Assembly: GCA_964016885.1 (NCBI GenBank)
Contig: OZ024758.1
Location: 16,678,001 to 16,742,000 of the forward strand
Length of the DNA: 64,000 nt
Direction: 5' to 3'
Origin: Eledone cirrhosa
Lineage: Eukaryota
The position numbers and the translations under genes were made by a program. Of this stretch, positions 1 through 58,692 are shown in pieces (the first letter of the stretch is position 1; the number at the start of each line of letters is the position of its first letter). The notes beneath the pieces were generated by a model. It did no database searches. It was not told the DNA's origin and saw only the letters and a program-made list of their open reading frames with translations.

Positions 1-69
1 CATCAATATTTGCGTAACTATAGATACTCCAGCTTTCATGATTGATATTAAACAATTTCTACTCCATAC

Positions 70-1440: not shown

Positions 1441-1597
1441 TGCCAATCCACCGCCCAATGATTTGTACTATAGGAACAAGGCTAGCAATTTTGAGGAAGG
1501 AAAGTCGTTTAAATCAACCCAGTACATTACTGGTACTTAATTTTATCGACCTCGTAAGGATGAAAGGCAAAGCTAACCTCAGCGGGCTTTGAATTCA
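1430..1597 (-). mobile_element. SINE family A, rearranged fragments
   Basis: ccgatactgccaatccaccgccc head and tactggtact...gtaaggatgaaaggcaaag core. Confidence 0.7.
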
Positions 1598-1609
1598 GTG
1601 TAGAAAAAT

Positions 1610-3419
1610 TAGGTTGGGCTAAGGAAGAGAGCAACATAGGTTTGGCTAAGGAAGGGAGCAACATAGGTTTGGCTAAGGAAGGGAGCGACATAGGTTTGGC
1701 TAAGGAAGGGAGCAACATAGGTTTGGCTAAGGAAGAGAGCAACATAGGTTTGGCTAAGGAAGAGAGCAACATAGGTTTGGCTAAGGAAGAGAGCAACATA
1801 GGTTTGGCTAAGGAAGAGAGCAACATAGGTTTGGCTAAGGAAGAGGGCAACATAGGTTTGGCTAAGGAAGGGAGCAACATAGGTTTGGCTAAGGAAGGGA
1901 GCAACATAGGTTTGGCTAAGGAAGGGAGCAACATAGGTTTGGCTAAGGAAGGGAGCAACATAGGTTTGGCTAAGGAAGGGAGCAACATAGGTTTGGCTAA
2001 GGAAGGGAGCAACATAGGTTTGGCTAAGGAAGGGAGCAACATAGGTTTGGCTAAGGAAGAGAGCAACATAGGTTTGGCTAAGGAAGAGAGCAACATAGGT
2101 TTGGCTAAGGAAGGGAGAAACACAGGTTTGGCTAAGGAAGGGAACAACATAGGTTTGGCTAAGGAAGGGAGCAACATAGGTTTGGCTAAGGAAGAGAGCA
2201 ACATAGGTTTGGCTAAGGAAGAGAGCAACATAGGTTTGGCTAAGGAAGAGAGCAACATAGGTTTGGCTAAGGAAGAGAACAACATAGGTTTGGCTAAGGA
2301 AGAGAGCAACATAGGTTTGGCTAAGGAAGGGAGCAACATAGGTTTGGCTAAGGAAGGGAGCAACATAGGTTTGGCTAAGGAAGGAAGCAACATAGGTTTG
2401 GCTAAGGAAGGGAGCAACATAGGTTTGGCTAAGGAAGAGAGCAACATAGGTTTGGCTAAGGAAGAGAGCAACATAGGTTTGGCTAAGGAAGAGAGCAACA
2501 TAGGTTTGGCTAAGGAAGAGAGCAACATAGGTTTGGCTAAGGAAGAGGGCAACATAGGTTTGGCTAAGGAAGGGAGCAACATAGGTTTGGCTAAGGAAGG
2601 GAGCAACATAGGTTTGGCTAAGGAAGGGAGCAACATAGGTTTGGCTAAGGAAGGGAGCAACATAGGTTTGGCTAAGGAAGGGAGCAACATAGGTTTGGCT
2701 AAGGAAGAGAGCAACATAGGTTTGGCTAAGGAAGAGAGCAACATAGGTTTGGCTAAGGAAGGGAGCAACACAGGTTTGGCTAAGGAAGGGAACAACATAG
2801 GTTTGGCTAAGGAAGGGAGCAACATAGGTTTGGCTAAGGAAGAGAGCAACATAGGTTTGGCTAAGGAAGAGAGCAACATAGGTTTGGCTAAGGAAGAGAG
2901 CAACATAGGTTTGGCTAAGGAAGAGAACAACATAGGTTTGGCTAAGGAAGAGAGCAACATAGGTTTGGCTAAGGAAGGGAGCAACATAGGTTTGGCTAAG
3001 GAAGGGAGCAACATAGGTTTGGCTAAGGAAGGAAGCAACATAGGTTTGGCTAAGGAAGGGAGCAACATAGGTTTGGCTAAGGAAGAGAGCAACATAGGTT
3101 TGGCTAAGGAAGGGAGCAACATAGGTTTGGCTAAGGAAGGGAGCAACATAGGTTTGGCTAAGGAAGAGAGCAACATAGGTTTGGCTAAGGAAGAGAGCAA
3201 CATAGGATTGGCTAAGGAAGGGAGCAACATAGGTTTGGCTAAGGAAGGGAGCAACATAGGTTTGGCTAAGGAAGAGAGCAACATAGGTTTGGCTAAGGAA
3301 GAGAGCAACATAGGTTTGGCTAAGGAAGAGAGCAACATAGGTTTGGCTAAGGAAGAGAGCAACATAGGTTTGGATAAGGAAGAGAGCAACATAGGTTTGG
3401 CTAAGGAAGAGAACAACAT
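1610..3419. repeat. 27-bp minisatellite, ~67 copies (aggtttggctaaggaagRgagcaacat), with a 648-bp higher-order duplication
   Basis: Exact 27-nt period. Rare variants recur 648 nt apart (cacagg at 2121/2769, ggaagagaac at 2271/2919). Confidence 0.95.
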
Positions 3420-3829
3420 TGTACCGTTTCGGGCAGAGCCCCTTTCGATATAGAGTCCAGGGTAAAAGGTCAGAATTTTCCTCTCCCTGTCGGCAAACTA
3501 ATTTGTTCTACTCTTGAACTGTTTATTATCACTAATTCCCGACACAGACCAGCATTAGTTTGCTCGGATCTTACTGTTTACTTTACTTAATTAACCTTAG
3601 GGTCACTAAATAATTAAATAAATATTCTGAATTGTGTCTAATTTCAGATCTATTAATCTTCGTCTCACATCTACTTAATTAACAACAGTGTTGCTGCTTG
3701 ATACTGATAACCATAATCATCATCATCATCGTCATCATCATCTTAAGGTATATACGTACATATGTGTATTTCTTTATTCTTTCACCAGAAACGTTGTGGC
3801 AACATATAGTCTTTATAAAGGATATCAGA

Positions 3830-12430: not shown

Positions 12431-12489
12431 ATAAACTGAATGGAAAAAAGAAAAGCTACTAAAGGGGAGGTCACCACAAATCTGTTTGT

Positions 12490-12779
12490 ATTAAACATAG
12501 CACTACTGGACATTGCTGAGTTTTTGAGTATCAGGTATTTGGAGGCCATGGGTTTAGCATAGTGTGAGTGGAGAATTTGGGCTCTCTCGTCTATAGTGTT
12601 AATCCAGAGTTCTGTGTCTAATACAGGTAGTCTATTGTGAGGGTGTTTGGAAGGGAAGTCGATAGTTACAGTTATACTCTGGTGTATGGAATTAGCTATC
12701 TGCTGGATGCTTTCCATCGTGCTACGTTCTAAATCAAACTTGTTAGTGCTCTCTAGTGGGGGTATTCTTATAACTATAT

Positions 12780-14447: not shown

Positions 14448-14452
<5 letters not shown>

Positions 14453-14475
14453 GATTTAATGCTCTGAAATAGCGA

Positions 14476-14830
14476 TATATATGTGAAGACAAACATAGAA
14501 TATTCGAAAATATTCTGTATGTTTATAATAAACATTTTGAAGACCTAATCGCTAGAATAGAATACGTCACGTATTACAATTTGAGATTCTCGATAAAAGC
14601 AAGGTAAGTATTCTATAAGTCTCTAGCTGTGTCATTCTCGATAGAAGCACTGGATATGTAATCCTGATGATTTCTAATAAGAATGAAACGCGTAGGTTAC
14701 TTCCCTTGCTTTTATCGAGAATCTCAAATTGCAATACGTGACGTATTCTATTCTATAGCGATTAGGTCTTCAAAATGTTTATTATAAACATACAGAATAT
14801 TTTCGAATATTCTATGTTTGTCTTCATATA
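14476..14830. mobile_element. Fold-back mini-element (~125-bp inverted arms) with a hammerhead in the spacer, (TA)n-flanked
   Basis: 14480-14604 is the reverse complement of 14704-14827 with few mismatches. Confidence 0.85.
14658..14700 (+). ncRNA. Minimal type I hammerhead ribozyme
   Basis: gtaatc CTGATGA t ttct aata agaa t GAAAC gc GTA ggttac: stem I gtaatc/ggttac, stem II ttct/agaa, palindromic stem III ACGCGT, GUA cleavage triplet. Confidence 0.85.
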
Positions 14831-15013
14831 TATATATATATAAATGTATATATATATATATAAATATATAAATATATATAAATATAAATATATAAATATA
14901 TATATAATATATATATATAAATATATATATATAAATATAAATATATAAATATAAATATATATATATATAGTAATACATTTGAAGACTAAAATCCAAAGAG
15001 GGCTCGATAAGGT

Positions 15014-20892: not shown

Positions 20893-20895
<3 letters not shown>

Positions 20896-21439
20896 GATAA
20901 ATCTACCAAAAGTTTACGGTAGTGTCCAATCCGTATGAAGAACTCAATGTAATCCGGATATCATGGAAAGAAGAGATGCATTCAAAAATCACTTTCGGTG
21001 AAAGATAAACGGAATACAGAGTCAAGATAAAATGTTAAAAAAATAATGAATAAAACAATGAAACAGTTCCTTATATTAAACAAAATAGTTCATTATTTAA
21101 CGATCGTTTCTAGGACATATATGTGTTAGAATTGGCATGCATATTCAACAGATCTATGTACAAAATTATACAAACTATCAAATATAATATACATACCAAC
21201 ACATACATATGCCGTCTTCAGAAATAATCTTTTCTAATTATTTCTGAAGACGGCATATGTATGTGTTGGTATGTATATTATATTTGATAGTTTGTATAAT
21301 TTTGTACATAGATCTGTTGAATATGCATGCCAATTCTAACACATATATGTCCTAGAAACGATCGTTAAATAATGAACTTTTTTTGTTTAATATAAGGAAC
21401 TGTTTCATTGTTTTATTCATTATTTTTTTAACATTTTAT
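20893..21439. mobile_element. Fold-back mini-element inserted in (TA)n: ~200-bp arms (21027-21228 / 21237-21439) plus a one-sided extension (20893-21026)
   Basis: Near-perfect palindrome. A copy of the empty site lies at 21511-21630. Confidence 0.9.
21237..21373 (+). ncRNA. Type I hammerhead with ~100-nt expanded stem II (mirror copy 21092-21228, minus)
   Basis: attattt CTGAAGA c ggcatatgt-atgtgttgg ... ctaacacat-atatgtc cta GAAAC gatc GTT aaataat: 7-bp stem I, palindromic stem III. Confidence 0.8.
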
Positions 21440-24184: not shown

Positions 24185-24531
24185 ATATATATATATATAT
24201 ATATAAATGAAAATAGCGAAATTAATGTGAGCAAGAAGCCAACAGTATTTCATCATATATAAGTGACTATAACGTCAAGATGGAAAATATTTAACGTAAG
24301 ATATGGGAAAATAATTCAAACTCAATTAAAAAAAGAAGTTAAAAAAAAGTCATTTTATCCACAGATTTTGTGAAATCCAGGGAAAAAACCGATAGAGTCT
24401 TAACTCATATATATATATTTAACCTTAATTTTATTCTATGTATATATATGTATATATATTAATAAGGGTTGATGGACCCAGCATATTTATCAATGCCAGT
24501 ACCGGTTGTATCTCAGATATATATATATATA

Positions 24532-25085
24532 GTTATGCTTTGGGAGGGTCATGTTGCCAATAAGAAACACACGCACCAGTTGCTTTCACTCCAATTTATT
24601 ATAAATTAAATTTATAAATTTAAGAATTTATAAATTTCCGGTTGGTTGGTTGGTTCCACAACCGGGCTGTTGTTCATATATTGTCAAAGTTCTTTCGTCA
24701 CGCATTCTGTGACCTCTTCAGTGACTGGGGATTCTTTTCTTTGTTTTTGTGCATCTCCTTTGTTCTGTCCTACGCCATCTTGAAAAACAAGATGGCGTAG
24801 GACAGAACAAAGGAGAGGCACAAAAACAGAAAAACTGAAGAGGTCACAGAATGTGTGACGAAAGAACTTTGACAATATATGAACAACCGTCCGGTTGTGG
24901 AACCAATCAACCAACCAGAAATTTATAAATTCTTAAATTTATAAATTTAATTTATAATAAATTGGAGTGAAAGCGACTGGTGCGTGTGTTTCTTATTGGC
25001 AACATGACCCTCCCAAAGCATAACAATATCGGTTTCAACACACGTTTTCAGATAAAGAATCTTGCTAAACAAATTCAGAAACGAA

Positions 25086-25086
<1 letters not shown>
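24532..25086. mobile_element. Fold-back PLE terminal-repeat element (palindrome 24532-25024 plus ~60-nt tail), related to the 3' end of the 46-50 kb PLE
   Basis: Centre cttg-aaaaa-caag at ~24785. atgaccctcccaaagcataacaatatcggtttcaacacacg aligns with 50493-50534. Confidence 0.88.
24683..24725 (-). ncRNA. Minimal type I hammerhead ribozyme (the mirror copy at ~24836-24872 has lost the 5' strand of stem I)
   Basis: gtca CTGAAGA g gtcac agaatgc gtgac GAAAG aa CTT tgac. Confidence 0.85.
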
Positions 25087-25120
<34 letters not shown>

Positions 25121-26046: not shown

Positions 26047-26243
26047 ACGAAGGGAAAGTGGTAAGGAACCAGGTGGACCATGACGCACCAAAGTACTCAA
26101 TACTTAGGGTAGTAGAGTGGGTAATAGGAACAAGTAAGATCCCCCGACGGCTGAGCTCAAGCCGTTTCGACGGCTAATTCTGGACTCAGAATTAGCCGGC
26201 GAAACGGCTTGAGCTCTGCCGTCGGGGTCTTACTTGTTCCTAT
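26047..26243. mobile_element. Fold-back mini-element, same family as 15758-15973
   Basis: Palindrome 26124-26243 preceded by the shared gtactcaatacttaggg.agtagagtggg extension. Confidence 0.82.
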
Positions 26244-35030: not shown

Positions 35031-36352
35031 TTCAGTCTACAATAATTGTTTCTACTTTTGGCACAAGGCCAGCAATTATCTCAGTGCATTACTGGTACTT
35101 TCATTTATCGACCCCGTAAGGATGAAAGGCAAAGTTAACCTCGGCGGGATTTGAACTCAGATTATAAAGGGCCGTAACTCTATGCTACAAAGCATGGTGT
35201 CCGACTCTCTGCCAATACTGCCAATTCACCGTCTTCGGTCTACAATAATTGTTTCTACTTTAGGGACAAGGCCAGCAATTACCCAGTTCATTACTGGTAC
35301 TTTATTTTATCGACCCCGTAAGGATGAAAGGCAAAGTTAACCTCGGCGGGATTTGAACTCAGATCATAAAGGGCCGTAACTCTATGCTACAAAGCATGGT
35401 GTCCGACTCTCTGCCAATACTGCCAATTCACCGTCTTCAGTCTACAATAATTGTTTCTACTTTAGGCACAAGGCCAGCAATTAACCAGTTCATTACTGGT
35501 ACTTTATTTTATCGACCCCGTAAGGATGAAAAGCAAAGTTAACCTCGGCGGGATTTGAATCCAGATCATAAAGGGCCGTAACTCTATGCTACAAACATGG
35601 TGTCCGAACCTCTACCGATACTGCCAATTCACCGCCCTTGAATGATAGAAATAATTGTTTCTACTTTAGGCACAAGGCCAGCAAATACCCAGTTCATTAC
35701 TGGTACTTTATTTTATCGACCCCGTAAGGATGAAAGGCAAAGTTAACCTCGGCGGGATTTGAACTCAGATCGTAAAGGGACGTAACTATGCAGGAAAGCC
35801 TTTCATCCCTACGGGGTCGATAAAATAAAGTACCAGTAATACACTGGGTTAATTGCTGGCCTTGTGCCAAAAGTAGAAACAATTATATTTAGTAGGATTG
35901 GCAGTATTGGTAGAGGGTCGGACGCCATGCTTTGACGCATAGAGTTACGGCCCTTGCCATTCTGAGTTCAAATCCCGCCGAGGTTAACTTTGCCTTTCAT
36001 CCTTACGGGGTCGATAAAATAAAGTACCAGTAATGTACTGGGTAATTGCTGGCCTTGTGCCAAAAGTAGAAACAATTGTATTTAGTATCCTTATCCATGA
36101 TACAAGTTTTTTAAAGATCTTTCCCGAAAGAATTAACTGATTACCTAATACCAAAGAAAAGATGAATACCTTATTTACCAATAATAATTGTTTCTACTTT
36201 TGGCACAAGGCCAGCAATTATCCCAGTGCATGACTGGTACTTTATTTTATCGACCCAAGAAAGATGAAAGTCAAAGCTAACGTCGCCGGGATTTGAACTC
36301 AGAACGTAAAGCATGGTGTCAGACCCTCTACCGATGCTGCCAATCCATCGCT
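35031..36352. mobile_element. Cluster of seven SINE family A copies: four head-to-tail minus copies (~203-bp period), two plus copies, one minus copy
   Basis: The spacer ttcrgtctacaataattg is repeated with the unit at 35031, 35235 and 35436. Confidence 0.9.
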
Positions 36353-39760: not shown

Positions 39761-39950
39761 TGGGCGGTGGATTGGCAGTATCGGTAGAGGGTCGGACGCC
39801 ATGATTTCCAGCATAGTTACGTCCTTTTACGATCTGAGTTCAAATCCCGCCGAGGTTGACTTTGCCTTTCATCCTTACGGGGTCGATAAAATAAAGTACC
39901 AGTAATGCACTGGGTAATTGCTGGCCTTGTGCCTAAAGTAGAAACAATTA
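39761..39950 (+). mobile_element. Full-length SINE family A (~190 bp, tRNA-derived head)
   Basis: gggcggtggattggcagtatcggtagag head, GAGTTCAAATCCC B box, gcctttcatccttacggggtcgataaaataaagtaccag central domain. Confidence 0.9.
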
Positions 39951-40252: not shown

Positions 40253-40258
<6 letters not shown>

Positions 40259-40650
40259 CTTCCAACCATCATTGGTATTTCATCGCTTTAAAGACCATAT
40301 ACCTCCGGTTGGTGCGAGCAACGGCAAAAAATAAAATCGTTGGGACACGTAAATAAAGGGGACACGAGTGTAAACAAACAAAGATGGTGAAGCAACGAAA
40401 AATGAGGTTTGATGGTCTTTATTCTCTCTCGTTCACGATTTCACCGAATTTAAATTCATAGAAATTTGGGACTTGACTCGTTCTTCCTCACTTTTCGTTG
40501 CTTCACCATCTTTGTATGTTTACACTCGTGTCCCCTTTATTTACGTGTCCCAACGACCTTTTTTAGCCGTTGCTCGCACCAACCGGAGGTATATGGTCTT
40601 TAAAGCGATGAAATACCAATGATCGTTGGAAGATCACTGATGAAGGACTA
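40253..40650. mobile_element. Fold-back mini-element (~155-bp arms 40253-40408 / 40486-40638) ending in a half hammerhead core
   Basis: Clear inverted repeat. The right arm runs into gatca CTGATGA aggac (40637-40643) with no GAAA partner. Confidence 0.82.
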
Positions 40651-40761
40651 ACTTTATTCATATGTAACCCATTAGCAACCACGCAGCACGTTTATTCTTA
40701 TGTGTATATATATATATATATGTTTATGTATGTGGGTATGTGAGAGTATGAGTTTGGTAGG

Positions 40762-45069: not shown

Positions 45070-46020
<951 letters not shown>

Positions 46021-46540
46021 TATTGTTATATTTGGGGAGGGTCATATTTGCGTAATATTGCCAGAATTAATAACAGAACACACTCACTGTTTGGTTGGTT
46101 TTCGCTTCTCGCTGTCTTTTATATATATATATCTGCGATCTAACTTACTCGGTCCTCAATGTTGCCATTGACTGACCGGCGGTCAAAAATAATACAGATA
46201 CAATATAGACAAACACATATATATATAGTTTACATAAATCTTTCGTTGCACATCTGCAACATCGTCAGTGGTGTTATATTCATTGTTCCTCCTGTTGTGT
46301 TGTATGTCTACGCCATTTTTTTTGTTCAGTCTGTCTATATATTTATTTATTTATTTGCTTGTTTGTTTATCTTATTTTATTTTGTCTTCTTTGCGCATGC
46401 GTTTGCGTGTGTGTATAGTGTTATGTGTGATGTGTGACTAGTGTGTATAGTGTTGTGTCTGCTGGGTGACTAGTGTGTGTTTATGTGCTTGTGTATGTAT
46501 TTATTTATCTTATTTTATTTAATTTAATTTACTTATTTAT

Positions 46541-47298
46541 TTATACTTCTCTTAGGTCAGTGTTGTTTGTTTGGGTGTTGTTGTTGTTCCACTCATTCTT
46601 TCTGTTTAGCTTTGGTCTTCTAATTTCTATTTCACTGGCCTCTCTGATTTGCCTATCTGCTGGGTCATTCCTATGTTTAGATATTATTCTAATTTCTATG
46701 TTGTCTATGTTACCGTCATGATGTTGTCTAGCATGTTCGTATAGTACTGACCCGTTTTTTCGTCCTTTTAGTTCCCCCCAGTGTTGGTCTATCCTTTCAC
46801 CTATGCTACGAGCTGTCTCACCTATGTATGTTGTTGTCGTGTTTCTGCAAGTACCCTCTGTACATCTTATGCTATAGACTACGTTTCTAGTTTTACAGTT
46901 TATCCGGGGGTTCACCTTACATATGATACATTTCCTATTGGTACAGTGGGTTTTCTTAAAAGGGTAGGTTTTGCTGATCAGGGATTTTATGGTGGTTCCT
47001 GGCTTTTCTACCACCTTTATTTTTAAGTGGGTCTTTCTCAGGGCCTTTCTACACTGGTTAGCTAATTTCCCTCCAGGGGTGGCGTCCACAAACATGACAC
47101 TCTGATATCTCTGGTTGTCGTACCATGATGTGGCCTTCCCTATCTTATGTCTAGCCCTATCTAAGCTATTCCATGATTTGCTCCTGTATAGTGGGCAAAT
47201 TCCTTTCATGTCCAGTTCTATGAGGGTCTTATACTTTTCCATGGCTCCTTCGTATACTCTGACTCTGTCTCTTTGGTTGTAGCCAGAGAACTGCATGC
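46541..47298 (-). pseudogene. Inverted duplicate of the PLE C-terminal region (thumb end + GIY-YIG)
   Basis: MQFSGYNQRD...TDLREV is identical to the C-terminus of the plus-strand ORF. The N-terminal MYYFHYY.. is antisense read-through. Confidence 0.9.
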
Positions 47299-47637
47299 AG
47301 TGACCACAGTAGTAATAACGGTAACAATACGAACAACAACAACAACAATAACCACAGTGGTAATAATGGAAATAGTACATGTAGCAACATCAACAAAAAC
47401 AAGAAACATAATAATAGTAACAACCACAATGGTAGAAATAGCAGTAACAACAACAATAACGGTGAAGTAAACAACAATACATCTAGCAATCATAACAATA
47501 ATAATATTAATGCTAAGGATAGAAACAACAACAACCACCATGATAACAATAATAGCAACACACACAACTATGACGATAGAAATAACGACAACCCCTTAGA
47601 GAAACTATTTTTCAACCCAGCTGACAAAACATATAAG

Positions 47638-49998
47638 ATGGGTAATATCTATCCTACGAGGTTACCCTTTAATAAAAGAGTTTGCATACCACAACAAATA
47701 GATGACGAGACGGAGGCACAGTTCACCATAGCTAGAAATAAGATTAGACAAGTAGTAGACAGGTACACTATGAGACAGAGCAGACCAGAGGCCCAACAAC
47801 TTGGGATAAAACCTGTAGAAGGCTTGGTTAGCCTCAAGCAGCGCACAAGGGATGGTGAGGTAGTGTGTCTACCCACAGATAAGTCTGGTAGGATGTCAAT
47901 AGATAGCATGCCGAACTACATCGAGGCAATGCAACCCCACATCACCAACACGAGCGAAGTTGCACAACTAACACACGATGGGAGAGAAAAAATCCTCAAC
48001 GCTCACATGATGATGTGGACTGACATCCTAAAGCCAAGCAGACGCACTGCCAACAACTTCCAGGCGTCTAACAATGGCATACCACCCTTGTATGGGCTCC
48101 GCAAAGACCACAAGACAGTCGACGACCCGACAATAGGACCACCAACAAGACCTGTATGCGGAGCTAATATAGCTAGCAACTACAGGATCTCCTACTTCCT
48201 CTCAATGGTTATACGCCCCATAATCAAGATGTCCCCAGATGTATGTGAAAGTACAGAGGACCTCCTCAGCAGAATCAGTGAGTGCAACAAAAACAGGAGC
48301 CTATCCAACTGCATAATAGGCAGCATGGATGTGGTGTCACTGTACCCATCCATTAACATTGATTTTGCTGTGAAAAGATGTGTGGAGATGATCATTGAGA
48401 GTGAGGTGGAGTTCTGCGACGTCGACACAGACGAACTGGGCCTCCTACTTAGACTTACCTACGACACTGACTACCTAGACAGCCATGACCTTAGATGTTT
48501 CTGCCCTAGTAGACCTATAAGAGGTAGACCCCCCACCATAACCTCAATGGCTAAAAAGACTCCCATAGGAAGGTGGATTGGGTGGACCAAAGCTATACGG
48601 ACCCCCCAAAACACTGATCAGGTAAGAAAAATGGTCGCACATGCAATAGGGGCTAGTATCAAAACTACCCTAAAGGGCCACATATTTAAGTTCAATGAGA
48701 AAATCTACACTCAAAATGAGGGAGCAGCCATCGGCGTCAGCATAGCTGGCGATGTTGCCAACCTTTTCATGGTATGGTGGGAAAGGAGACTTAAAGATCT
48801 CCTTAATGAAAGCTCCATAGACCTCATCATGTACTCTCGTTATGTAGACGATATCAATATAGTTATAAGAACACCCCCACTAGAGAGCACTAACAAGTTT
48901 GATTTAGAACGTAGCACGATGGAAAGCATCCAGCAGATAGCTAATTCCATACACCAGAGTATAACTGTAACTATAGACTTCCCTTCCAAACACCCTAACA
49001 ATAGACTATCTGTATTAGACACAGAACTCTGGATTAACACTATAGACGAGAGAGCCCAAATTCTCCACTCACACTATGCTAAACCCATGGCCTCCAAATA
49101 CCTGATACTCAAAAACTCAGCAATGTCCAGTAGTGCTAAGTTTAATATTCTGATCGCAGATTTGGTACGAGTGATGAAGAATGTGTCCAGCATGTGCGAC
49201 CCAACAGAAATGGAAGGACACATCCAACACTTCATCAACCGCATGCAGTTCTCTGGCTACAACCAAAGAGACAGAGTCAGAGTATACGAAGGAGCCATGG
49301 AAAAGTATAAGACCCTCATAGAACTGGACATGAAAGGAATTTGCCCACTATACAGGAGCAAATCATGGAATAGCTTAGATAGGGCTAGACATAAGATAGG
49401 GAAGGCCACATCATGGTACGACAACCAGAGATATCAGAGTGTCATGTTTGTGGACGCCACCCCTGGAGGGAAATTAGCTAACCAGTGTAGAAAGGCCCTG
49501 AGAAAGACCCACTTAAAAATAAAGGTGGTAGAAAAGCCAGGAACCACCATAAAATCCCTGATCAGCAAAACCTACCCTTTTAAGAAAACCCACTGTACCA
49601 ATAGGAAATGTATCATATGTAAGGTGAACCCCCGGATAAACTGTAAAACTAGAAACGTAGTCTATAGCATAAGATGTACAGAGGGTACTTGCAGAAACAC
49701 GACAACAACATACATAGGTGAGACAGCTCGTAGCATAGGTGAAAGGATAGACCAACACTGGGGGGAACTAAAAGGACGAAAAAACGGGTCAGTACTATAC
49801 GAACATGCTAGACAACATCATGACGGTAACATAGACAACATAGAAATTAGAATAATATCTAAACATAGGAATGACCCAGCAGATAGGCAAATCAGAGAGG
49901 CCAGTGAAATAGAAATTAGAAGACCAAAGCTAAACAGAAAGAATGAGTGGAACAACAACAACACCCAAACAAACAACACTGACCTAAGAGAAGTATAA
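47638..49998 (+). CDS. Penelope-like reverse transcriptase + Cys-rich linker + GIY-YIG endonuclease (786 aa from first Met; frame open from ~47299)
   Basis: TDKSG, LYGLRKDHK, TRPV, SMDVVSLYPSI, QNEGAAIG, YSRYVDD, VLDTEL, HYAKP; linker CTNRKCIIC..C; NVVYSIRC...YIGETARSIGERIDQH...EH...RQIREASEI...LN. Confidence 0.95.
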   Translation: MGNIYPTRLPFNKRVCIPQQIDDETEAQFTIARNKIRQVVDRYTMRQSRPEAQQLGIKPVEGLVSLKQRTRDGEVVCLPTDKSGRMSIDSMPNYIEAMQPHITNTSEVAQLTHDGREKILNAHMMMWTDILKPSRRTANNFQASNNGIPPLYGLRKDHKTVDDPTIGPPTRPVCGANIASNYRISYFLSMVIRPIIKMSPDVCESTEDLLSRISECNKNRSLSNCIIGSMDVVSLYPSINIDFAVKRCVEMIIESEVEFCDVDTDELGLLLRLTYDTDYLDSHDLRCFCPSRPIRGRPPTITSMAKKTPIGRWIGWTKAIRTPQNTDQVRKMVAHAIGASIKTTLKGHIFKFNEKIYTQNEGAAIGVSIAGDVANLFMVWWERRLKDLLNESSIDLIMYSRYVDDINIVIRTPPLESTNKFDLERSTMESIQQIANSIHQSITVTIDFPSKHPNNRLSVLDTELWINTIDERAQILHSHYAKPMASKYLILKNSAMSSSAKFNILIADLVRVMKNVSSMCDPTEMEGHIQHFINRMQFSGYNQRDRVRVYEGAMEKYKTLIELDMKGICPLYRSKSWNSLDRARHKIGKATSWYDNQRYQSVMFVDATPGGKLANQCRKALRKTHLKIKVVEKPGTTIKSLISKTYPFKKTHCTNRKCIICKVNPRINCKTRNVVYSIRCTEGTCRNTTTTYIGETARSIGERIDQHWGELKGRKNGSVLYEHARQHHDGNIDNIEIRIISKHRNDPADRQIREASEIEIRRPKLNRKNEWNNNNTQTNNTDLREV

Positions 49999-50268
49999 AT
50001 AAATAAGTAAATTAAATTAAATAAAATAAGATAAATAAATACATACACAAGCACATAAACACACACTAGTCACCCAGCAGACACAACACTATACACACTA
50101 GTCACACATCACACATAACACTATACACACACGCAAACGCATGCGCAAAGAAGACAAAATAAAATAAGATAAACAAACAAGCAAATAAATAAATAAATAT
50201 ATAGACAGACTGAACAAAAAAAATGGCGTAGACATACAACACAACAGGAGGAACAATGAATATAACAC

Positions 50269-50306
50269 CACTGACGATGTTGCAGATGTGCAACGAAAGA
50301 TTTATG
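50269..50306 (+). ncRNA. Minimal hammerhead in the PLE 3' repeat (mirror copy 46233-46270, minus)
   Basis: ca CTGACGA t gttgca gatg tgcaac GAAAG at TTA tg: strong stem II, G-U pair in stem III, very short stem I. Confidence 0.75.
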
Positions 50307-50585
50307 TAAACTATATATATATGTGTTTGTCTATATTGTATCTGTATTATTTTTGACCGCCGGTCAGTCAATGGCAACATTGAGGACCGAGTAAGTTAGA
50401 TCGCAGATATATATATATAAAAGACAGCGAGAAGCGAAAACCAACCAAACAGTGAGTGTGTTCTGTTATTAATTCTGGCAATATTACGCAAATATGACCC
50501 TCCCCAAATATAACAATATCTGTTTCGACACACGATTTCATATAAAAAACCTCGCAAAACTATATATATATATATATATATATAA

Positions 50586-51627: not shown

Positions 51628-52060
51628 TAATAATTGTTTCTACTTTAGGCACAAGGCCTGCAATTACCCCGTTTATTATTTACTTTATTTTAATTACTTT
51701 ATTTTATTTACTTTATTTTAATTACTTTATTTTATCGACCCCGTAAGGATGTAAGGCAAAGTTAACCTCGGCGGGATTTGAACTCAGACCATAAAGGGAC
51801 GTAACTCTATGCAAAGCATGACGTCTGACTCTCTACCGATACTGCCAAATACCTAAATCCTAAATCATTATTACTGGATTGGCAGTATCGGTAGAGAGTC
51901 GGACACCATGCTTTGCAGCATAGAGTTATGGTCCTTTATGATCTGAATTCAAATCCCGCCGAGGTTAACTTTGCCTTTCATCCTTACGCGGTCGATAAAA
52001 TAAAGTACCAGTAATGTACTGGGTATTTGTTGGCCTTGTGCCAAAAGTAGAAACAATTAT
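51628..52060. mobile_element. Two SINE family A copies, head-to-head (51628-51848 minus; 51876-52060 plus)
   Basis: Consensus match. Confidence 0.88.
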
Positions 52061-52221
52061 TACTGGGTGTACAGTAATAATGATTTCTGACTTAGGTATA
52101 AGGACAAGAATTATTTTGGGGGAGGAACGGGAGGTGAAAATCGATTAAATCGCTCCCCAGTTTGTCACTGGCACTTTATGTTACCGAACCCTTAGAGATG
52201 AAATGTTCATCGGGTTTGTTC

Positions 52222-57357: not shown

Positions 57358-57665
57358 GGTAGGAAGTCGGTTGATCGGTTAAACATATACTAAAATCTAA
57401 TATCTAATCTAAACTGGCCGAGTTTACACTCGCAAATAAGAACCAGGGCCACCCCTGGGAGCATTGGATTTGGTGTACTTCATATTTGTTTCGGTTGCTA
57501 AATACAATCAGGGGTCGCTGCTTCTCCTGAAGGTCAATAGTTCTCTTCTAACTCGAGCGGGAGCGCCTTTCCATTGTCAATTTGTATTGATTATCTGCAA
57601 AGCCGCATTGTTCTCAGAACCATGCGGCTTTGCAGATAATCAATACAAATTGACAGTAGAAAGGC

Positions 57666-57835
57666 GGTAGAGGGTCGGACGCCATGCTTTGACGCATAGA
57701 GTTACGGCCCTTGCCAATCTGAGTTCAAATCCCGCCGAGGTTAACTTTGCCTTTCATCCTTACGGGGTCGATAAAATAAAGTACCAGTAATGTACTGGAT
57801 AATTTCTGGCCTTGTGCCAATAGTAGAAACAATTG
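57666..57835 (+). mobile_element. 5'-truncated SINE family A with a 16-bp target-site duplication
   Basis: attgttctcagaacca at 57607-57622 and 57832-57847. Confidence 0.88.
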
Positions 57836-58288
57836 TTCTCAGAACCACTACACCACTCTTGATGCGTGCAGCTGGAACTACTGCCATTTTAAAACTAAAA
57901 ATCCTTCCCGAAACCAGTCATTAGGGAAGGTAAAATTCTCATGTGATAATTTAGTCCTACATATCTCCCCACCACCACCACCACCAAATAATTACACGAG
58001 GGCCATTATATCATTGTAGACTGAAGGCAATTAACCTTGTCTGGTCAATCAGGATTGACTTAAGATTAAACATAACCAAAATCAAAGACAACCCAACACA
58101 GCTCTAATCACTGGAAACGAGACAAAAGTATTACAAGTCCTAATTAAAAACAAACAAAATAAAATAAATAATATGAAAAAAGAACAATTAAAATACAATT
58201 ACAGTGACCCCTTCCCTCTGATACATCTTTGAACACATACAAATATTTTCTGAAGAATCCTTCATGATATTATTAATGGCAGTATCCA

Positions 58289-58692
58289 CGGCGGTGGATT
58301 GGCAGTATCGGTAGAGGGTCGGACGCCATGATTTGCAGCAAAATGTTCCGTCCCTTTACGGTCTGAGTTCAAATTCCGCCTGGGTTAACTTTGCCTTTCA
58401 TCCTTACGGGGTCGATAAAATAAAGTACCAGTAATGTACTGGGTAATTGCTGGCCTTGTGTCAAAAGAAGAAATAATTATTAATAGCAGTATCGGTAGAG
58501 GGTCGGATGCCATGCTTTGCAGCATAGAGTTACGGCCCTTTATGATCCGAGTTCAAATCCCACCAGGTTAACTTTGCCTTTCATCCTTAAGGGGTCGATA
58601 AAATAAAGCACCAGTCCCGCACCGGGGTCGATTTAATCGACTTTCCCTTCCCCCCAAATAGCTGGCCTTGTGCCTATATAAGAAACCATTAT
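58289..58692 (+). mobile_element. Two tandem SINE family A copies
   Basis: Consensus match. Confidence 0.88.

Follow-up and report, generated by a model that had tools for sequence, protein, structure and literature searches.

The small imperfect palindrome at 24527–25089 of the analysed window (the whole 64,000-nt stretch of Eledone cirrhosa DNA) is, judged from its sequence, a pair of 5'-truncated, head-to-head ends of an autonomous PLE, here called family B, and we consider it likely that the two ends were made in one insertion by two reverse transcriptases that started at two fixed sites in the ORF start.

Results

The palindrome (the mini) covers about 560 bases within (TA)n, and sequence comparison identified its two arms as inverted copies, the right one longer by 60 nt (Table 1). 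The outer end of the short arm is ambiguous within the TA run, 24532 being its first unambiguous base. The arms differ at 7 of 213 compared sites, and the right arm carries a net 14-nt deletion before the hammerhead core. Elsewhere in the genome, copies of the right arm run upstream into GIY-YIG-type coding sequence, a tandem copy (L188) provides a 4151-bp family-B unit that encodes RT and a putative EN and has a frameshift in the Asn-rich linker, and exact marker matches number 27,595 for family B against 3,581 for family A, to which the large PLE of the window belongs. On these grounds the mini is assigned to a second autonomous family and does not, as an earlier note on this DNA had proposed, link the small elements to the window's PLE; for 11 further small TA-flanked stretches of the window, similarity to it does not exceed that of shuffled sequence.

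Table 1. Features of the mini-palindrome and of the family-A PLE in the window.
Feature	Position	Strand	Remarks
Left (TA)n target	24517..24531	.	about one target-duplication length
Short (S) arm, family-B PLE	24527..24782	-	pLTR 5' end to ORF nt +26, joined to (TA)n
Minimal type-I hammerhead-like motif, left arm	24683..24725	-	GUCA/UGAC stem I, 6-bp stem II, 2-bp stem III, CUU site
Head-to-head junction, core TGA	24781..24783	.	G at 24782 common to both arms
Tailed (T) arm, family-B PLE	24783..25089	+	pLTR through ORF nt +86
AAGATGGCG motif	24789..24797	+	mirror 24773-24781 on -; 5' ends pile up just upstream
Hammerhead-like core, right arm	24835..24873	+	5' stem-I strand deleted
First 86 nt of B ORF	25004..25089	+	ATG 25004; MTLPK[H/Y]NNIGFNTRFQIKNLAKQIQKRN; basis: tandem read-through in L188
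S site, ATAT	25026..25029	+	ORF +23..+26
60-nt tail between S and T sites	25030..25089	+	ends in ATAT at +83..+86
S arm, window's family-A PLE	46020..47301	-	ends at ORF +26
T arm, window's family-A PLE	47298..50562	+	5'-truncated RT + GIY-YIG-type ORF (stop 49998), pLTR, next ORF start 50494, end +69
Hammerhead-like motif, family A	50267..50307	+	weak stem I, compensated stem II, UUA site
Block homologous to 25001-25070, family-A ORF start	50491..50560	+	S site 50516-50519

Families A and B are 66% identical in amino acid sequence over RT-EN, and the nearest named protein to the family-A ORF comes from Octopus vulgaris (68%). Full 4147-bp family-A units occur elsewhere (L121), some of them frameshifted in the Asn-rich linker. 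The window's A element has near-identical arms, the inverted one measuring 1282 nt and sharing its endpoint with the mini; the A copy at 47298–50562 is without the ORF start and the entire N-terminal domain, and a second A-like RT fragment (12489–12774, minus strand) is 98% identical to 48862–49147. For the RT model (pLDDT 89.8), the best two fold matches were TERTs (E = 5e-9 and 5e-8), which agrees with the telomerase-related RT of EN+ PLEs; the Pfam RVT_1 match (E = 2e-4) lies below cut-off. GIY-YIG-type motifs (VVYSIRC..C..YIGET, then R/H/E/N) can be read near the C-terminus of A and B, with C686, Y693 and Y709 invariant in 64 relatives, and Pfam and PDB sequence searches with the EN domain returned no match. 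Ahead of the EN, both families have a CX4CxxC linker (C670, C675 and C678 invariant) that falls within the CX2-5CxxC pattern of Neptune/Nematis, and tandem and inverted pLTR insertions with a one-ended tail, as known from EN+ PLEs, are represented by the 4147- and 4151-bp tandem units and the inverted pairs. In the available text of Craig et al. (2021, PMC8557442), Neptune/Nematis-type C-terminal EN+ PLEs have an RT followed by a CX4CxxC linker and a GIY-YIG domain with internal cysteines, an order that the motifs read in A and B would match, target (TA)n, and form tandem and inverted 5'-truncated insertions with a tail that is often one-ended. Two other assignments were rejected: in Naiad the EN is expected at the N-terminus, and the EN motifs of A and B are C-terminal; for the Hydra clade (no CCHH, DKT, <3 kb), the internal cysteines, DKSG and 4.15-kb unit of A and B do not fit.

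Arm ends were mapped in 59 of 64 A clusters and 69 of 70 B clusters, the sample being set by the first 100 marker matches on contig C1, with markers placed upstream of the breakpoint so as not to favour tailed ends. By alignment, ends were assigned as short (S, at +26) or tailed (T, at +84/86, in A also +69..+75). They proved to be clustered at few fixed positions instead of being scattered: among 85 terminal A ends, 50 lie at +24..+30, 12 at +69..+75 and 23 at +84/85, and the 98 terminal B ends divide into 48 at +22..+26, 47 at +83..+87 and 3 elsewhere. Most of them run into a TA repeat (83/85 in A, 90/98 in B), and each used end site is TA or ATAT. An ATAT at +47 in A is used by none of the 85 ends, so that position matters besides microhomology. 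Counted across the genome, exact matches for family B amount to 16,836 at the S junction and 14,426 that continue past it; some of the latter stem from internal read-through. Predicted RNA folding at S and T was no better than that of shuffles (z = -0.27 and +0.77). The earlier note had the inverted arms of both elements stop at the same point, which is borne out: this point is ORF nt +26 (ACAATAT, then TA repeat), and the mini's apparent stop at ..ATAAC corresponds to it with one A>T change. The 40–60-nt tail it described on the other arm is 60 nt long in the mini; in the window's A element, where the alternative end at +69 is used, it measures ~43 nt.

Three landmarks had been described as common to the mini and the PLE 3' region, and both elements indeed contain AA.ATGGCGTAG, a CUGAnGA..GAAAG core and ATGACCCTCCC..ATAACAATATC; the hammerhead, placed downstream of the first of these, is reduced in the mini's right arm, where the 5' stem-I strand was lost in the deletion. 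The proposed alignment of the mini's end with the 50215–50560 region likewise holds, positions 25001–25070 matching 50491–50560 with 82.9% identity over 70 nt (BLAST E = 3e-13; local score 80 versus a maximum of 33 in 300 shuffles). According to tandem read-through, this common block is the ORF start, MTLPKYNNI(C/G)F(D/N)TRF. Since synonymous identity of A and B in the first 20 codons (11/16; 17/20 identical in protein) is not above the RT-EN background (278/495; p = 0.22), and related peptides open the ORFs of distant homologues, coding constraint suffices as an explanation of the motif. Codons 6–9, which surround the short end, are identical between A and B, and their region may have a role at the nucleotide level. 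The claim of a shared breakpoint in two diverged PLE families thus survives as a fixed, position-defined short end, but not as a sequence-defined nick site; other TA-targeting families have the same short-plus-tail anatomy with unrelated breakpoint sequences.

For the breakpoint, a reverse-transcription start site is a better explanation than nicking of the element, because the ends at +26 and +84/86 match two RT start sites published for the anole PLE, where they were measured in vitro and bracket the tail (PMC11167929, available text). The alternative, in line with a suggestion in the accessible part of PMC8557442 that EN resolution causes the tails, is that the two arms are at first both tailed and that, during resolution of the intermediate, the GIY-YIG endonuclease cleaves the DNA of the element itself at ATAT (+23..26). 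We regard it as unlikely: besides the anole start sites, the S end adjoins the target duplication, as expected of a priming junction, the ATAT at +47 goes unused, and it would be left unexplained why exactly one arm is cut.

At the other end of the arms, 324 palindrome centres have both arms starting within ~30 nt upstream of AAGATGGCGTAG, compared with 29 and 7 at two control positions; the three 12-mers used for these counts are preserved in 17, 25 and 11 out of 45 long arms, and the enrichment at the hot spot after that correction is ~20-fold. Five of 49 inspected hot-spot matches belong to A-like subfamilies, and the A-type hot-spot count was 101 versus 1 at a less well matched control. 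Among 66 sampled B 5' ends, 11 lie at -242..-224 and none at -223..-180. Direct junctions read G|A in 17 of 18 cases (p = 7e-5 against the 50% ceiling for random abutment); the plain count of bases before arm starts is uninformative (G 24, T 23). We infer a cap-templated base at the junctions and a pLTR transcription start just upstream of AAGATGGCG, a motif that may be YY1-like; this putative start is probably the capped 5' end of the RNA. A cap-derived G has precedent, and the G shared by both arms of the mini may possibly be one.

Hammerhead cleavage was rejected as the source of these 5' ends, as none of the 66 B ends falls within 4 nt of the cut. A hammerhead core with compensated stem II can be made out in the pLTR sequence; Rfam searches with the entire window and with both hammerhead regions gave below-threshold miRNA-type matches only and no hammerhead. 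Hammerhead-core patterns (CUGAnGA..GAAA) are also seen in other small TA-flanked elements of the window (at 14664, 19729, 23638, 25218 and 26357). In both families, an invariant GTGTGTT upstream of the ATG (24983–24991) is complementary to RACACAC in the tail (25037–25044); the two are predicted to pair in the minimum-energy fold for B but not in that for A, and they show no covariation.

With hundreds of similar minis that keep the hammerhead-like motif and both start sites, and with non-autonomous elements derived from PLEs on record, the mini might be taken for a self-propagating non-autonomous family (MITE- or retrozyme-like) that a PLE moves as a unit. This appears improbable, given that hardly any two of the 45 centre junctions examined are alike and that arm lengths grade continuously into full-length and tandem units. 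A MITE, as a fixed unit with constant ends and centre, was rejected on the grounds that centres vary and one terminus is always longer, and a non-LTR retrozyme, with head-to-tail repeats and a hammerhead in each, because the mini is a head-to-head pair. Transcripts of the pLTR only may be re-mobilised in trans; the palindrome would nonetheless be rebuilt each time.

The pairing of ends is close to invariable. The 59 A clusters comprise 38 classable inverted pairs, 15 solo S, 2 solo T and 4 unresolved cases. All but one of the classable pairs are S/T (37/38), the exception being T/T (L130), a near-duplicate of L131 that lies 9.5 kb apart and differs in its right end; rearrangement or mis-assembly is the likely reason for this double appearance. 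In B, the 29 pairs with both marker matches are S/T without exception. A coordinate-only test, with a sample partly overlapping these pairs, gave 42/46, the remaining four representing two internal read-throughs, two separate S/T insertions in one case and one true T/T (L305), so that three of the four resolve to S/T. Among 63 minis, 22 have an eroded arm; of the other 41, 38 are S/T and 3 have a damaged end. The erosion of one arm from near the centre (L241–L304) is consistent with palindrome instability.

At source-polymorphic sites, the two arms of A insertions were discordant in 1 of 57 instances versus 21 expected (12 informative insertions, with linked sites non-independent), and those of B in 106 of 1345 versus 370 expected; later gene conversion within palindromes could contribute partly to this concordance. 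Target duplications of 11–15 nt (mode 13, microhomology included) flank 14 of 102 pairs, compared with a mean of 1.5 and a maximum of 6 in 300 shuffles. Considering pairs with a marker in the TA run, the duplication is seen in 11/15 A and only 2/13 B pairs. Two cases have the T-side junction outside TA sequence and ATAT on the S side, and 17 of 30 A centres have an overlap of 1–6 nt. The excess of solo S copies (15 versus 2 solo T) and the longer S arms (S longer in 23 versus 8; p = 0.011) in the young family A suggest that S is primed first. B arms show no length bias (S longer 13 versus 13), which, together with the low count of B duplications, the true T/T L305 and the T/T at the duplicated locus L130, speaks against the double-priming reading set out below.

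Source variants common to both arms would also be expected if only the T arm were reverse-transcribed and its cDNA folded back, copied itself into the inverted arm and joined the target at ATAT, and a few pairs whose arms have the same 5' end outside the hot spot (A 2 versus 0.36 expected; B 4 versus 0.83) point the same way. Fold-back requires an S arm no longer than the T arm, and S is longer in 23/36 A pairs and 13/31 B pairs. It is largely refuted by tiny T arms, down to 17 nt (+68..+84), that lie wholly downstream of S and whose S partners reach -158 to -3530: because such T arms do not overlap the kilobase S arms, fold-back is excluded as the general route, priming being independent of S, and we consider it very improbable. 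An assembly artefact from fold-back reads is hardly credible, even if (TA)n palindromes assemble poorly, the window's A arms are near-identical and no contig among those listed spans the mini centre, given that arms differ in sequence and, by a rule, in their 3' ends, young pairs have target duplications on their flanks, in public runs the contig depth drops by a factor of more than ten immediately beyond the T site, and a contig from another organism ends at S in (TA)n.

Discussion

Double priming in a single insertion, the reading we prefer, would proceed as follows. A protein dimer would nick both strands of (TA)n ~13 nt apart; one target 3' end would pair with AUAU at +23..26 and prime the S cDNA, probably first, and the second would prime the T cDNA ~60 nt farther downstream; both would probably use one and the same RNA, the first cDNA being displaced. 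One RNA is slightly favoured over two RNAs from one locus. The cDNA 3' ends would then be joined head to head through 0–6 nt of microhomology, and a mini would form if the pLTR-proximal ORF start served both enzymes and each then ran off the RNA at its capped 5' end. As a tentative generalization, PLEs may employ obligate asymmetric double priming, in which one dimer nicks both strands ~13 nt apart and its two RTs, each starting at its own fixed site, copy a single RNA, with the trailing enzyme displacing the leader's cDNA; inverted repeat, one-sided tail and solo S copies would then be outcomes of one reaction, common to many unrelated (TA)n-targeting families of this genome. In L1 twin priming, both target ends likewise prime cDNA and the resulting inversion is joined by microhomology, as proposed here; its segments are non-overlapping and the internal site is variable, in contrast to the overlapping arms and the two fixed sites seen here.

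The closest known system is Poseidon of Anolis carolinensis (PAc; Frangieh et al. 2024, PMC11167929), which, in the available text, has two RT start sites in the ORF start that bracket the tail, an AT-rich target, both strands nicked and extended, and a predicted dimer; hammerhead cleavage is not needed there, and we saw no pile-up of 5' ends at the cut. According to the same text, start sites do not differ between the strands and lack homology to the target, the PAc starts lying in a non-homologous 111–118 region, whereas here they lie at +26 and +84/86, at ATAT/TAT able to pair with the target. In addition, the tail here is 43–60 nt, the hammerhead-like motif is upstream of the ORF, and the one-to-one S/T pairing and ~13-nt stagger are unreported for PAc in that text. 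Where the accessible part of PMC8557442 gives 30–40 bp tails from EN resolution and a variable duplication length, the duplication here centres on 13. Penelope of Drosophila virilis (Schostak et al. 2008, PMC2377424, available text) also has a pLTR promoter, a tail repeat at the ORF start and variable-size inverted terminal repeats; the putative start here differs in being marked by the AAGATGGCG motif. Non-LTR retrozymes, as described in the available portion of bioRxiv 10.64898/2026.07.22.740005, are pLTR-derived, non-coding and hammerhead-bearing as well, but form head-to-tail tandem arrays instead of a head-to-head pair rebuilt per insertion.

The origin of PLE inverted repeats and one-sided tails is presented as an open question in PMC8557442 and as unvalidated in PMC11167929, as far as their available text goes; that of PMC13282606 and PMC12602865 holds nothing on S/T end anatomy. 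The literature searched, older Penelope papers and supplementary figures excepted, contains no statement of obligate S/T pairing, a shared template or a fixed stagger. The feature is explained in outline by the published mechanism; S/T pairing, shared source variants, the ~13-bp duplication and the 5' hot spot are additions. Thousands of young copies in this genome fix testable numbers for the start sites, S/T pairing, ~13-nt stagger, shared template and likely capped start, and family A is a good candidate for reconstitution because at least 40 of its ends are identical over 351 nt. It matters for annotation, too, that tens of thousands of features in this genome that look like MITEs or hairpins are PLE ends.

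Other TA-flanked palindromes of unrelated families with one short and one tailed arm lie at 14450–14835, 20893–21439, 26047–26243 and 40254–40704 of the window. In the window and the sampled loci, the tails of such palindromes are ~35–120 nt long and their breakpoint sequences differ; what they have in common with the mini would be mechanism, not sequence. In the tails of other families, a complementary ACTC...GAGT(A/G)C pair, possibly a shared stem, occurs just past the short end (L055:816-1250, L083:1693-2010, L143:3376-3554, L216:2076-2720). The window further contains an abundant dispersed repeat of ~190 nt, often as inverted pairs (35031–36350, 39763–39950, 51723–52064, 57564–57837 and 58290–58626), and a long tandem array of a short unit that is open in several frames (1564–3453); microsatellites dominate the repeat content found in a whole-window repeat search.
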